Source of the DNA: Candidatus Aenigmatarchaeota archaeon
GTDB lineage: Archaea > Aenigmatarchaeota > Aenigmatarchaeia > QMZP01 > QMZT01
Assembly: GCA_011772645.1 (NCBI GenBank)
Contig: WVZE01000001.1
Location: forward strand, 17,888-81,887
Length of the DNA: 64,000 bases
Direction: 5' to 3'
The notes under the pieces are model-generated. The model searched no databases, was not told where the DNA came from, and saw only the letters and a program-made list of their open reading frames with translations. Position 1 is the stretch's first letter. Each line of letters starts with the position of its first letter. The translations under genes and the position numbers were made by a program. Positions 5,453 through 9,990 of the stretch are shown piece by piece.

Positions 5453-6331
5453 ATGTTATCATTCTACAAGAAACTGGCGCTGACCTTTTTTGGAGGTGTT
5501 GTTGACAGGTATATAGACTCCTTCAGGCCGCTTGAACCGCACATAAAAAATGCAAACATGAAGATTCTGTTGAAAACGTGGGTGTCTCTCATAATCTTCA
5601 CGAGTATCATGCTGTTCCTCATAACGTTCATTTTAACCTATGTCGTTCTCACCTTTTTCATACAGGTTGAGTTCTACATCTACATTTTCACAACAATATT
5701 CCTGCCCGTTTTTGTTGCGTCTGTCGCTTTCATAATTTTCTATCTTTACCCTGTACAGAGAGAAAACTCGAGAAAGAACAGCATAGAGAACAACCTTCCA
5801 TTCGCCACAACCCACATGGCTGCCATCGCCTCTTCAGGCATCCCGACCGAGTTTGTGTTTGAACTGCTGATGGGTTTTAAAGAGTACGGGGAAATAGCAG
5901 AGGAATCGAGACTTATAATGAGGAACATAAAAACTTTTGGAATGAGCAGCGTGGATGCGATAAAGAACGTCGGCGACAGAACACCTTCCCAGGAATTCAG
6001 GGAACTGCTGCTGGGAATCGTCTCGACAATAGAAACCGGGGGGAACCTCATACAATACCTGAGGGAGATGTCCGACAAGGCGTTGTTCGATTACAGGATC
6101 AAGAGGGAAAAGTACCTGAAGACTCTTTCCACTTATGCGGATATCTATACCGCACTTCTTGTCGCAGCTCCCTTGATGATGCTTGCATTGTTGGCAACCA
6201 TGAGCATAATAGGAGGTCAGGTCCTGGGTCTGGGCATACAGGATGTCATGCTGCTCATAACGTGGTTGGTATTGCCAGTACTGAATATCTCTTACCTTGC
6301 TTTCATACACGTAACATATCCGGGGATGTGA
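5453..6331 (+). CDS. Type II secretion system F-domain membrane platform protein, first of two (FlaJ/TadB/EpdJ-like)
   Basis: 292 aa and polytopic. The cytoplasmic region 'NLPFATTHMAAIASSGIP...' followed by C-terminal TM helices is typical of a T2SSF domain. Confidence 0.75.
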   Translation: MLSFYKKLALTFFGGVVDRYIDSFRPLEPHIKNANMKILLKTWVSLIIFTSIMLFLITFILTYVVLTFFIQVEFYIYIFTTIFLPVFVASVAFIIFYLYPVQRENSRKNSIENNLPFATTHMAAIASSGIPTEFVFELLMGFKEYGEIAEESRLIMRNIKTFGMSSVDAIKNVGDRTPSQEFRELLLGIVSTIETGGNLIQYLREMSDKALFDYRIKREKYLKTLSTYADIYTALLVAAPLMMLALLATMSIIGGQVLGLGIQDVMLLITWLVLPVLNISYLAFIHVTYPGM

Positions 6332-6338
6332 TGGGAAT

Positions 6339-7184
6339 ATGAGGGAATATAGAATATTGATATTTGAAGCGATGTTCGTTGCGATAGGAGTTAGTATCCT
6401 TGTCGCGAACTTCATGATAATTTCAGAGCTTTTCCCCTTCATAAGCCCTCTTATCAACATGCTTGGAGCGCTGATAGCGATTATCCCTCCCTTCCTTCTC
6501 TTCTATTCAAGATACAGGATAGGTAAGGAGATAGAGGGGCAGTTCATAATGTTCATCACCGATCTAACGGAGGCCATAGATTCCGGGATGACCCTGCCCA
6601 TCGCCCTGAAACATTCCGCAAAGAGGAGTTACGGTGTGTTGACACCATACGTAAAGGAGATAAACAGCAAGGTCAACTGGGGCGTCCCTTTCGAACAGGC
6701 GCTCTCCATGTTTGCCAAGAAGGTCAAATCCGTTCCCATCAACAGATCGGTAGGAACGATCATCGAAACCTACAAGGTTGGGGGGAAGATTTCGGACACG
6801 TTGAAGGCGATAGGTCAGTCACTCATAGAGATAAACAAGATAAAACAGGAGAGATCCGCCTCCGTACAGTCGCAAATCGTTACCTCCTATCTCATATTCT
6901 TTGTCTTCATATTCATTCTCGTCATATTACAGGCTTTTCTGATACCCGCCCTGGGGTCTGCAACTGCGGCTGGTCTGGATGATGCTCCGGAGGAACTGCC
7001 CGAAGAACTCTATTCCCAGACTTTTGTGAACTTCATAATTGTTCAGGGGTTCTTTGCAGGACTCGCAACGGGTAAGATGGCGGAAGGTTCGCTGGTCGCC
7101 GGGTTCAAGCATTCGCTGGTTCTTGTGGTGATAGGCTATACTATATTCTCCCTCCTTGGACAGTTCCAGATAAGACTATTTTAA
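6339..7184 (+). CDS. Type II secretion system F-domain membrane platform protein, second of two (FlaJ/TadC/EpdK-like)
   Basis: 281 aa. 'QFIMFITDLTEAIDSGMTLPIALKHSA...VNWGVPFEQAL' is a T2SSF-domain signature. It starts 7 nt after the stop of the previous gene. Confidence 0.75.
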   Translation: MREYRILIFEAMFVAIGVSILVANFMIISELFPFISPLINMLGALIAIIPPFLLFYSRYRIGKEIEGQFIMFITDLTEAIDSGMTLPIALKHSAKRSYGVLTPYVKEINSKVNWGVPFEQALSMFAKKVKSVPINRSVGTIIETYKVGGKISDTLKAIGQSLIEINKIKQERSASVQSQIVTSYLIFFVFIFILVILQAFLIPALGSATAAGLDDAPEELPEELYSQTFVNFIIVQGFFAGLATGKMAEGSLVAGFKHSLVLVVIGYTIFSLLGQFQIRLF

Positions 7185-7230
7185 ATAACTGTGTTCAGAA
7201 TAAATGTTATAGATATCTGATGGTGATTGT

Positions 7231-7431
7231 GTGGGTAGGATAAAGACAGCCTCGATAAAGGTTATGGGGAACCAGATAATCAAGGAGCACGGAAAGCTTT
7301 TCACTGATAATTTTGAGAAGAATAAAGAGGTTCTGGATGAAGTAAGGGAGATAAAGTCCAAGAAGATAAAGAACATCTTGGCTGGTTATATAACAAAGGA
7401 AATAAAAAGGATGAAGAAGAGCGGGTTGTGA
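7231..7431 (+). CDS. rps17e: 30S ribosomal protein S17e
   Basis: 'MGRIKTASIKVMGNQIIKEHGKLFTDNFEKNKEVL...ILAGYITKEIK' is a typical eS17 sequence. Confidence 0.9.
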   Translation: MGRIKTASIKVMGNQIIKEHGKLFTDNFEKNKEVLDEVREIKSKKIKNILAGYITKEIKRMKKSGL

Positions 7432-7435
7432 TGCA

Positions 7436-8521
7436 ATGAAACTGGAGGACGTCCTTGAAGATGCGTTTTTTGTGAAGCCGGATGATTCTCTTTCCCACGT
7501 GGTGTCAATGATGGCGAAGGAGAAGAGGTATGAGGCGTTCGTATCCGAAGGGGGTTTCAAAGGAATAATCACACTTGATGACATTATAAAGAGGAGGTTA
7601 ACAAGCCCGCAAAACGTTAAGGTATCGAATTTCATGAAACCGATAAACCCCTTTGAAGTGGACTCTCCTGTTGAGGATGTAATAAACTATATGCTTGTGA
7701 GCGAACATAGGTCGCTTCCGATCAAGAAGGGAGGGAGGATATTCGCGGTCACGAAACCCAAACTTCTGAATTTTATCAAGGACGAAGTTTTTGAGGGAAA
7801 GAAGGCGAAAGATGTGATGCAGTTTCCTTATTCAGCAGACACGAACGACACGCTCTCAACCGTTATTTCCGTAATGAAGGAGACGGGCCTCGACAGGATT
7901 CCGATACTTGACGAGAAAGGGGGGTTTGTTGGTCTGGTGGACAGCGTCAGCCTTGCGAATGTATTAACTGATAAAGGAAGGTCCAAGAGAGGTGAAAGGT
8001 TCGGTGATAAGGAGAGGTTGGAGGAAGTGGGGATAGAAAGATTCTTACGGAAAGAGATATTAAAGGTGAACCCGGAAACCGAGCTCAAGCGAATAGTCAG
8101 GGACATCTCGAAAGAGGGGGTTTGCGCGGTAATCGTGGAGGGAGGCGAGAAATTCCTGGGCATGATCACTGTCAGGGACCTTTTCAAATTGATAGGGAAG
8201 TCCCTGGAGACCGTCTACATAAGGATTAGCGGTCTGGACATGGAGGACGATTTCATAAAATCCAAGATAGATGAGATGGTCGACAACACCATCACCAAAC
8301 TCCTGAAATCCCTTGAGGTGAACTACGTGGCGATACATGTTGAAACGCATAAAAGCGGAGGTAAAAGAAAGAAATACTCTGCTCAGGGGAGGTTCGTTAC
8401 CGATAAGGGGAACTTCCACGCGAGCGATCACGAGTGGGACCCAACGAAAGCGATGAAGCTGTTTCTTTCGAAGATAGAGAGGGAAGTTCACAAAAAGGTG
8501 GAGATGGAGAGGGGATATTAG
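7436..8521 (+). CDS. Four-CBS-domain protein with a C-terminal HPF/RaiA (S30AE)-like domain
   Basis: Four CBS repeats are visible (for example 'GIITLDDIIKR', 'GLVDSVSLANVL', 'GMITVRDLFKLI'). The last ~110 aa, 'VYIRISGLDMEDDFIKSKIDEMV...VNYVAIHVETHKSGGKRKKYSAQGRFVTDKGNFHASDHEWDPTKAMKLFLSKIEREVHKKVE', follow the beta-alpha-beta-beta-beta-alpha pattern of ribosome hibernation factors. It starts 4 nt after the S17e stop. Confidence 0.6.
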   Translation: MKLEDVLEDAFFVKPDDSLSHVVSMMAKEKRYEAFVSEGGFKGIITLDDIIKRRLTSPQNVKVSNFMKPINPFEVDSPVEDVINYMLVSEHRSLPIKKGGRIFAVTKPKLLNFIKDEVFEGKKAKDVMQFPYSADTNDTLSTVISVMKETGLDRIPILDEKGGFVGLVDSVSLANVLTDKGRSKRGERFGDKERLEEVGIERFLRKEILKVNPETELKRIVRDISKEGVCAVIVEGGEKFLGMITVRDLFKLIGKSLETVYIRISGLDMEDDFIKSKIDEMVDNTITKLLKSLEVNYVAIHVETHKSGGKRKKYSAQGRFVTDKGNFHASDHEWDPTKAMKLFLSKIEREVHKKVEMERGY

Positions 8522-9990
8522 AATATCTTCTTCCCCGCGAAGAAATCGTTTATCTTCGAATCCAGGTCCTTTATTTTCACGCGTATCTGTTTCATTGAAT
8601 CGCGGTCGCGGAGGGTTACATCTTTCCTTTTTAACGAGTCGTAATCAACCGTTATCGCAAGAGGAACGCCCAGCTGGTCGTAGATCACGTAGCGCTTCCC
8701 GATCGACTGCTTCTCGTCGTATTTCGTTTCGAATTTAGTTTTGAGAAGGTCGTGTATCTCCCTCGCCTTCTTGCCGATCCCGTCTTTCCGGACGAGCGGG
8801 AGTATCACGATGTCAAGGGGCGTGAGCTCTCTTGGGAACTTTAGGACGGGCTTTCCTTTCCTTTCGGAAAGGGAATTTTCTAGAACCGCGTAAAATATGC
8901 GATCGAGGCCCATGGAAAGCTCGAACACGTGAGGAACGAATTTTTCATCGTCCTCAACTACTGAAAGATCCGCCTTCGAAACCTTCGAATGCGAGGAGAG
9001 GTCGAAATCCGTCCGGTAGTTGCAGGCCACGAGCTCCAGCCAACCAACGCTCGTGTTAACCTCGAAGTCCCATGTTTCTTTCGAATAAAAAGCTTTCGCT
9101 TTATCCTCGAGTTCGCGGAAGCGAATATTTTTAGGATCGAGCCCGGCCTTCTCGAAGAATTCCTGGGTGATCGCCAGATAGTAACCTATGAGTTTTCCTG
9201 AAATTATTTTATTCTTAACCGCTTCGCCCAGGCTGACAGGTTCGATCTTGTCCTTTCCGAGGAGTTTCAGGCGAAGCTTCTTGTTTTTGTACTTTTCGAA
9301 TTCCGGGAAATCGTTGATTTTCTTGGGGTTGAAGAAGACCTCGGTCTCGAACTGGCTGAATTCCCTGGTCCGGACAAGGCCCTGGCGAGGGGAGATTTCA
9401 TTCCTGAAGGCCCTCCCAACCTGCGATATCGCCAGGGGTAGGGAAACCCTGGAAGTCTTATATATCTTCTGGAATGCGGTGAATATGTTCTGGCATGTCT
9501 CCGGCCGAAGGTAGGCGTTGTATTCCTTCGAGAGCGGGCCTATCGAAGTCCCTATCATCATGTTGAATTTTTTCACGTTCGAAAGCCCTCCTTTGCATTC
9601 TGGACAGGTGATCTTGTGTTTCTTTATTAAATCGTTGAATTCCTTTGTATCAAGGGCTTCTGGAATTATTTTTCCTGTTTTCCCTTCTATCAGTTTGTCT
9701 GCACGGAAAATCTTGTGGCATTTCTTGCATTGTACGAGAGGGTCGGCAAAGCTCTTCAGGTGTCCTGAAGCCTCGAAGTTCTTTTTCGGGAGTATCAGGC
9801 AGCCCTCGATTTCGAGAGAATCGGTTTTTCGGACGATCTCCCTCCTCCATAGGTCTATTATCCTCCTTCTCAGTATCGTCCCCAAATGTCCGAAATCCCA
9901 GAATCCCGAGGGAGGGGAATGTATTTCGGCTGAGGGGAAGAAGAGACCTCTCTGATCAGCAAGTTCATGTATTCTCTCGAATTTTCCCAT
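8518..9990 (-). CDS. glyS: Glycine--tRNA ligase (archaeal/eukaryotic-type class II)
   Basis: 490 aa. 'RGLFFPSAEIHSPPSGFWDFGHLGT', 'YLRPETCQ', 'GRAFRNEISPR..L.R.REF' and an anticodon-binding C-terminus identify it. Confidence 0.9.
   Translation of the reverse strand: MGKFERIHELADQRGLFFPSAEIHSPPSGFWDFGHLGTILRRRIIDLWRREIVRKTDSLEIEGCLILPKKNFEASGHLKSFADPLVQCKKCHKIFRADKLIEGKTGKIIPEALDTKEFNDLIKKHKITCPECKGGLSNVKKFNMMIGTSIGPLSKEYNAYLRPETCQNIFTAFQKIYKTSRVSLPLAISQVGRAFRNEISPRQGLVRTREFSQFETEVFFNPKKINDFPEFEKYKNKKLRLKLLGKDKIEPVSLGEAVKNKIISGKLIGYYLAITQEFFEKAGLDPKNIRFRELEDKAKAFYSKETWDFEVNTSVGWLELVACNYRTDFDLSSHSKVSKADLSVVEDDEKFVPHVFELSMGLDRIFYAVLENSLSERKGKPVLKFPRELTPLDIVILPLVRKDGIGKKAREIHDLLKTKFETKYDEKQSIGKRYVIYDQLGVPLAITVDYDSLKRKDVTLRDRDSMKQIRVKIKDLDSKINDFFAGKKIF

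Follow-up and report, generated by a model that had tools for sequence, protein, structure and literature searches.

The window, the whole 64,000-nt stretch of DNA analysed here, comes from a Candidatus Aenigmatarchaeota archaeon (contig WVZE01000001.1). It contains a short gene for ribosomal protein eS17 (rps17e) that is followed, on the same strand and after only 4 nt, by a 361-codon gene, hereafter hibA. The features of the locus are as follows.

5453..7184, directly 5' of rps17e: two tandem genes of T2SSF-domain proteins (292 and 281 aa; TadC/FlaJ-like membrane proteins)
7180..7187, + strand: TTTAAATA, TATA-box-like candidate promoter, about 47 nt before the rps17e start
7222..7227, + strand: GGTGAT, putative Shine–Dalgarno-like element, 3 nt before the rps17e GTG
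7231..7431, + strand: rps17e, coding for the 66-aa ribosomal protein eS17; starts with GTG and stops with TGA (7429–7431)
7386..7393, + strand: TTATATAA, TATA-like, inside rps17e, 43–50 nt before the hibA ATG
7432..7435, + strand: 4-nt spacer 'tgca' from the rps17e stop to the hibA ATG
7436..8521, + strand: hibA/AHA homologue (361 aa), TAG stop at 8519–8521
7436..8197, + strand: N-terminal CBS tetrad, aa 1–254 (Pfam CBS, AlphaFold2 model, Foldseek)
7967..8032, + strand: long CBS3 loop TDKGRSKRGERFGDKERLEEVG, aa 178–199 (alignments to P. abyssi HibA)
8198..8518, + strand: HPF/RaiA-like domain, aa 255–361 (models, Foldseek and sub-threshold HMM matches)
8518..9990, − strand: convergent class II aminoacyl-tRNA synthetase gene, GlyRS-like (tRNA-synt_2b and HGTP_anticodon)

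The identity of rps17e is given by NCBIfam NF002242 (74.2 bits, passing the cut-off of 72) and Pfam PF00833 (E 2e-14). The ORF coordinates bear out the first-pass annotation in placing the start of the 361-aa gene 4 nt past the S17e stop; the interval 7231–8521 given there covers both genes and is too wide as the extent of the 361-aa ORF alone. At its 3' end, the hibA TAG shares 2 nt with the TAA (8518–8520, minus strand) of the GlyRS-like gene. This overlap of convergent stop codons makes hibA the final gene of its transcription unit and leaves no room for an intergenic terminator, so that the two transcripts have to overlap at their 3' ends.

The N-terminal part of the protein is predicted to be a complete CBS tetrad. 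The AlphaFold2 model of the whole protein (17 homologues, mean pLDDT 83) contains four CBS units, whose ends fall near residues 52, 113, 178 and 250, and the Pfam CBS profile matches with E 7e-26, three stretches exceeding the threshold; the four repeats noted at first reading are thus all present in the model. Only the CBS3 loop (pLDDT below 50 over aa 180–193) and the inter-domain linker are disordered in it. In a Foldseek search, the full-length model retrieves the tetrads of SriA/SriD, AMPK-gamma, MJ1225 and Dri with E 1e-13 to 1e-16, and its matches to stand-alone tetrads include 9znf_4 (E 9e-17) and 9e6q_3 (E 7e-13). No HibA chain is found among these full-length matches, the library ending on 8 April 2026, before release of the HibA entries (the HibA paper is dated 27 April 2026).

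Since the CBS tetrads dominated the full-length search, residues 255–361 were modelled separately (pLDDT 81). The domain consists of E260–265, H272–290, E295–305, E313–322, E325–333 and H336–359 in the AlphaFold2 model, and its last helix, of 24 residues, is elongated as reported for AHA. The top 38 PDB matches of this model all belong to HPF/RaiA/YfiA/pY or their mycobacterial relatives, the best being 5mmj_y (E 9e-7), 6eri_BV (TM 0.77) and E. coli HPF/YfiA (TM 0.66–0.68), and other folds enter the list only from E 0.036 downward. The structure comparison therefore agrees with the proposal that the C-terminal segment (about residues 250–361, 8183..8518) has an HPF/RaiA fold. The HPF profile check suggested along with it also speaks for the proposal, at scores short of significance by the curated thresholds: Pfam PF02482 (21.4 bits; cut-off 23.7) and TIGR00741 (20.7 bits; cut-off 40.9; E 4.5e-4) both align to aa 262–354 over nearly their full length, and both stay under their curated cut-offs. 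A profile of the C-terminal domain alone, searched against PDB sequences, retrieved HibA only (E 0.004) and no bacterial HPF; its hhalign alignment to an approximate E. coli HPF sequence is in register but weak (E 0.02, probability 2%) and carries no weight here. On the two sub-threshold scores we rejected a canonical bacterial-type HPF as the identity of this domain, which is nevertheless homologous.

Across all PDB chains, the best sequence match of the 361-aa protein is 9sr9_H (E 9.7e-24, well outside chance; query aa 4–359 against chain residues 7–376). Madru et al. (Nat Commun 2026, PMC13324472) list 9SR9 under data availability as 'HibA-ATP' of Pyrococcus abyssi. BLASTP against full-length P. 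abyssi HibA gives 25% identity (E 2e-24). HibA (Madru et al.) and AHA (Souza et al., EMBO J 2026, PMC13728122) are one family, reported in about half of archaeal genomes after surveys of thousands in each paper (PMC13324472, PMC13728122). By architecture, full-length homology, modelled fold and loop motif, the 361-aa ORF is a member of this HibA/AHA family. The CBS-containing archaeal hibernation factors mentioned in the first-pass annotation do exist and have this same architecture (PMC13324472, PMC13728122), and the protein is an ordinary member of an already published family. A second PDB chain of this architecture, 9l96_a, is matched with E 8e-9 in an alignment that takes in the C-terminal domain, and appears to be another solved HibA/AHA-type factor; it is a 406-aa 'CBS domain-containing protein' chain present in four PDB entries (also 9l98, 9l9c and 9l9v), and our literature search found no paper for 9L96 or the entries of that set.

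The fusion of CBS and HPF domains is kept in related genomes, as homologue searches reveal. Close homologues, each of them about 361 aa long, all belong to Candidatus Aenigmatarchaeota MAGs, and a phylum-level search gave a match at E ≤ 1e-8 in 233 of 371 genomes. The window's own assembly (775 kb, 47 contigs, 78% complete) holds a single gene of this kind, and neither another S30AE domain nor another CBS tetrad was found in it, which is consistent with the reported mutual exclusion of HibA and stand-alone CBS modules. RelA_SpoT, the alarmone synthetase, has no copy in this assembly either, at its 78% completeness.

Our comparison with P. abyssi HibA (PAB0961; TK1186 and T. barophilus TERMP_00697; PDB 9SR9–9SRF, 9T7H) shows an end-to-end alignment, in which the CBS3 loop TDKGRSKRGERFGDKERLEEVG is placed on the P. 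abyssi 'PTC loop' (residues 190–207). The GExxG(D/E)K core of this loop (GExxGEK in the window's protein and in P. abyssi) is common to both and conserved throughout the window's order. In both proteins, too, the CBS4 nucleotide motif is present and the C-terminal domain is basic; in the 361-aa protein the computed pI is 8.8 for this domain compared with 6.8 for the CBS module. The differences lie in length (361 versus 392 aa, 31 fewer), in the low identity of only 25%, in the absence of about 16 C-terminal tail residues and in a shorter linker and helix 1. By comparison, AHA (HVO_2384) is by its published description built in the same way, from an AMPK-gamma-like CBS tetrad and an HPF domain whose terminal helix is elongated. 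Bacterial HPF/RaiA proteins (YfiA, pY) share the fold of the C-terminal domain (TM 0.65–0.77), whereas the window's domain has longer helices, is fused to a CBS tetrad and lacks the dimerisation domain of long HPF. The tetrads of SriA–D (Methanosarcina acetivorans) and Dri (Pyrobaculum) are structurally similar to that of the window's protein, but Sri has no HPF domain and Dri has two tetrads and no HPF domain; a CBS-only Sri/Dri identity was rejected for the 361-aa protein, which has the HPF domain and one tetrad only.

The motif G-h-h-T-x-[KR]-D is the canonical ribose/phosphate motif of CBS domains. In CBS4 it is kept (aa 242–248, GMITVRD) in the window, its order, the sister orders and P. 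abyssi, and this conservation makes adenine nucleotide binding at CBS4 likely. The ribose-binding Asp of CBS3, by comparison, is present in P. abyssi HibA and the sister orders and missing from the window's order (GLVDSVS versus GLVTLHD), in which the CBS1 motif is canonical instead. In AHA of Haloferax volcanii, two bound AMP molecules lie between CBS3 and CBS4 (PMC13728122); with CBS4 and CBS1 canonical here and the CBS3 Asp missing, the nucleotide stoichiometry of the window's protein may differ from that of HibA.

The adjacency to rps17e is a property of the window's order. All 30 loci obtained from 41 relatives have rps17e immediately upstream of hibA on the same strand, and 19 of 20 further loci from the order are linked as well; over the full-length loci of the order, the linkage is present in 49 of 55 and tight in 46. 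Most loci of the window's family have a gap of 4 nt, and across the order it mostly falls between about −4 (an ATGA-type overlap) and +16 nt. There are six exceptions, one of them due to contig ends, and the remaining unlinked HibA copies have long branches in the protein tree of HibA (1.2–1.9 substitutions per site). The gene pair is not found in the sister orders, with none of 20 loci linked, nor in P. abyssi, whose hibA has no rps17e within 3 kb and is preceded by a NikR-like gene and the aIF2-beta gene. Conservation of the S17e linkage in related genomes, raised in the first-pass annotation, thus holds across the window's order and stops short of its sister orders and P. abyssi. Beyond the Aenigmatarchaeota this statement covers P. 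abyssi alone, as a search of genome contigs with the family alignment gave 13 loci, all from Aenigmatarchaeota, its pattern being too specific for other phyla.

The sister-order proteins group together in the HibA tree (SH-aLRT 93), on which the linkage state changes five times, compared with a mean of 23.4 changes when the linked label is shuffled. This pattern in the protein tree is consistent with a single origin of the linkage at the base of the order and few losses thereafter. The unlinked copies L050, L052 and L053 (genus g7), L054 and L077 have 25–30% identity to the window's protein and come from the same family or order. In family f3 (L026, 2686..3225 on the + strand; L027 and L028), a 179-aa opposite-strand ORF with a hydrophobic N-terminus separates rps17e from hibA by 660–760 nt, so that any coupling of the two genes is broken there.

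In the sister orders (L081–L100), the gene just upstream of hibA is usually endA, encoding the tRNA-splicing endonuclease (PF01974 and PF02778), and most families in the window's order have the arrangement endA–rps17e–hibA (L020, L022, L024–L026, L045–L049, L063–L069, L071, L075, L076, L078 and L079). An endA–hibA pair seems to be the older state, with rps17e inserted into it. The window's family has the two T2SSF (TadC-like) genes upstream of rps17e instead of endA, an arrangement kept family-wide. In addition, stand-alone HPF genes of 121–132 aa without a CBS module follow rps17e directly in all five loci of genus g15 (L045–L049, family f6), whose five genomes have only this version, while other genera of the same family (L064 and L067) carry the full-length gene in that slot. 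Retention of the rps17e-adjacent slot by the stand-alone gene in all five indicates that the CBS module was lost in place. Derivation of archaeal stand-alone HPF genes from HibA is a published inference (PMC13324472).

The signals around the two genes were compared among relatives. The candidate promoter TTTAAATA shares nucleotides with the stop codon of the T2SSF gene upstream, and about 17 of 19 loci in the window's family have TTTTAAATA at the same distance; GGTGA or AGGTG is found 4–8 nt ahead of the rps17e start in most relatives. By contrast, the relatives compared have no conserved Shine–Dalgarno motif or comparable start signal ahead of hibA, and a promoter cannot fit into the 4-nt spacer. 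With a conserved TATA element and Shine–Dalgarno-like motif before rps17e and none before hibA, the pair is most likely expressed from one bicistronic mRNA. Termination–reinitiation is established in archaeal operons, and the spacing suggests that translation of hibA is coupled to that of rps17e: the ribosomes that translate hibA would be those that have just finished rps17e. Expression of an S17e–HibA fusion by frameshift or read-through was rejected, as the gap modulo 3 varies among relatives. Coupling of this kind would tie synthesis of the factor to that of ribosomal proteins and place its control after translation. The ribosome contacts listed for HibA do not include eS17 (PMC13324472, PMC13728122), so those contacts offer no structural rationale for the linkage.

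Published work provides a picture of how such a protein may act. HibA's C-terminal domain occupies the 30S subunit's mRNA/tRNA channel, and its CBS module has three alternative placements on the 50S subunit; in one of these, loop 190–207 enters the peptidyl-transferase centre (PMC13324472). Binding of the 70S ribosome across both subunits and preservation of ribosomes in stationary phase are described for P. abyssi, T. barophilus and Hfx. volcanii (PMC13324472, PMC13728122). By homology with the P. abyssi and Hfx. volcanii complexes, the CBS tetrad of the window's protein would dock on the 50S subunit, its C-terminal domain would take the same 30S site as bacterial HPF, and the long CBS3 loop may reach the peptidyl-transferase centre, the empty 70S ribosome being clamped in an inactive, protected state. 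The energy-sensing ribosome silencing put forward in the first-pass annotation goes beyond what the published work on HibA shows: that protein prefers AMP over ATP, and its ribosome binding in vitro is unchanged by either nucleotide (PMC13324472). Architecture, homology, fold and gene-order conservation were computed here; ribosome and nucleotide binding by this protein, as well as co-transcription and coupling of its gene, we infer. Taken together, it is highly probable that the ORF encodes a HibA orthologue acting as a 70S-clamping hibernation factor, and a bicistronic rps17e–hibA unit with termination–reinitiation is the most likely mode of its expression.

Three other explanations were weighed against this one. 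The public annotations 'CBS domain-containing protein' and 'predicted transcriptional regulator', together with the HPF scores under curated cut-offs, would suit a generic CBS regulator of the HhpR, Sri or IMPDH-related type whose HPF likeness arose by chance or convergence. This is extremely improbable and is refuted computationally by the alignment to 9sr9_H, which covers the protein from end to end, C-terminal domain included, and by the C-terminal Foldseek search, whose top 38 matches are all HPF-family structures; moreover, the two HPF HMMs, independent of each other, align in register to one and the same region, and the domain occurs alone after rps17e in a sister family. A more serious alternative, which we consider unlikely yet far from negligible, is that the two genes are merely adjacent in a compact genome, hibA being transcribed from its own promoter inside rps17e and translated independently, with no functional coupling. 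The TATA-like TTATATAA lies 43–50 nt before the hibA ATG and could be an internal hibA promoter in this genome, DPANN genomes are tightly packed, with the downstream gene here even overlapping the hibA stop, and one family keeps hibA despite the opposite-strand gene that splits the pair. However, the site reads TACATAAC (TAC ATA AC) in most relatives, and for want of such conservation TTATATAA is probably a by-product of the Tyr-Ile codons of this genome. The pairing also outlasts divergence of HibA to about 30% identity within the order, with gaps kept mostly between −4 and +16 nt, stand-alone HPF derivatives hold the same position after rps17e, and the copies found away from rps17e are long branches.

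The remaining alternative accepts the protein as a HibA member and assigns it a main role other than stress hibernation, as a constitutive ribosome-associated regulator or chaperone, or as a moonlighting partner in replication or recombination. Its place behind a ribosomal-protein gene, with no conserved start signals of its own, implies growth-phase expression; P. abyssi HibA is about as abundant as ribosomal proteins, and AMP or ATP had no clear effect on its binding to ribosomes (PMC13324472). In addition, pull-downs with Pab0961/TK1186 suggest replication or recombination partners. Nevertheless, deletions of hibA and AHA are reported to affect stationary-phase survival, 70S pools and regrowth (PMC13324472, PMC13728122), the sites occluded by HibA/AHA are incompatible with translation, and a hibernation role is itself compatible with constitutive synthesis, which makes this alternative improbable.

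Neither the HibA nor the AHA paper mentions S17e, operons or synteny (PMC13324472, PMC13728122), and full-text searching of the literature for S17e combined with CBS domains in archaea returned no paper. Three features seen in the order appear to be undescribed, if modest, additions to the family: the probable rps17e–hibA operon, the loss of the CBS module in place and the setting next to endA. The change from endA–hibA to endA–rps17e–hibA would be a shared derived character of the window's order, and the stand-alone HPF genes after rps17e lend syntenic support to the published origin of such genes by loss of the CBS module. A wider scenario, which we advance tentatively and hold to be possible rather than probable, is that hibA became a fixed, translationally coupled cistron of rps17e after the insertion into endA–hibA, so that the factor is made stoichiometrically with ribosomes during growth and switched solely post-translationally, for example when AMP or ATP acts on its CBS module or when mRNA and tRNA compete with it, the same slot in one family later losing the CBS module in situ and keeping a bare HPF. 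An order-wide wiring of a hibernation-factor gene to a ribosomal-protein gene argues for constitutive, ribosome-proportional synthesis with post-translational control, and thereby bears on the role of nucleotide binding by the CBS module. If true, this would amount to a 'pre-loaded' hibernation strategy, one that suits host-dependent cells with an intermittent energy supply.
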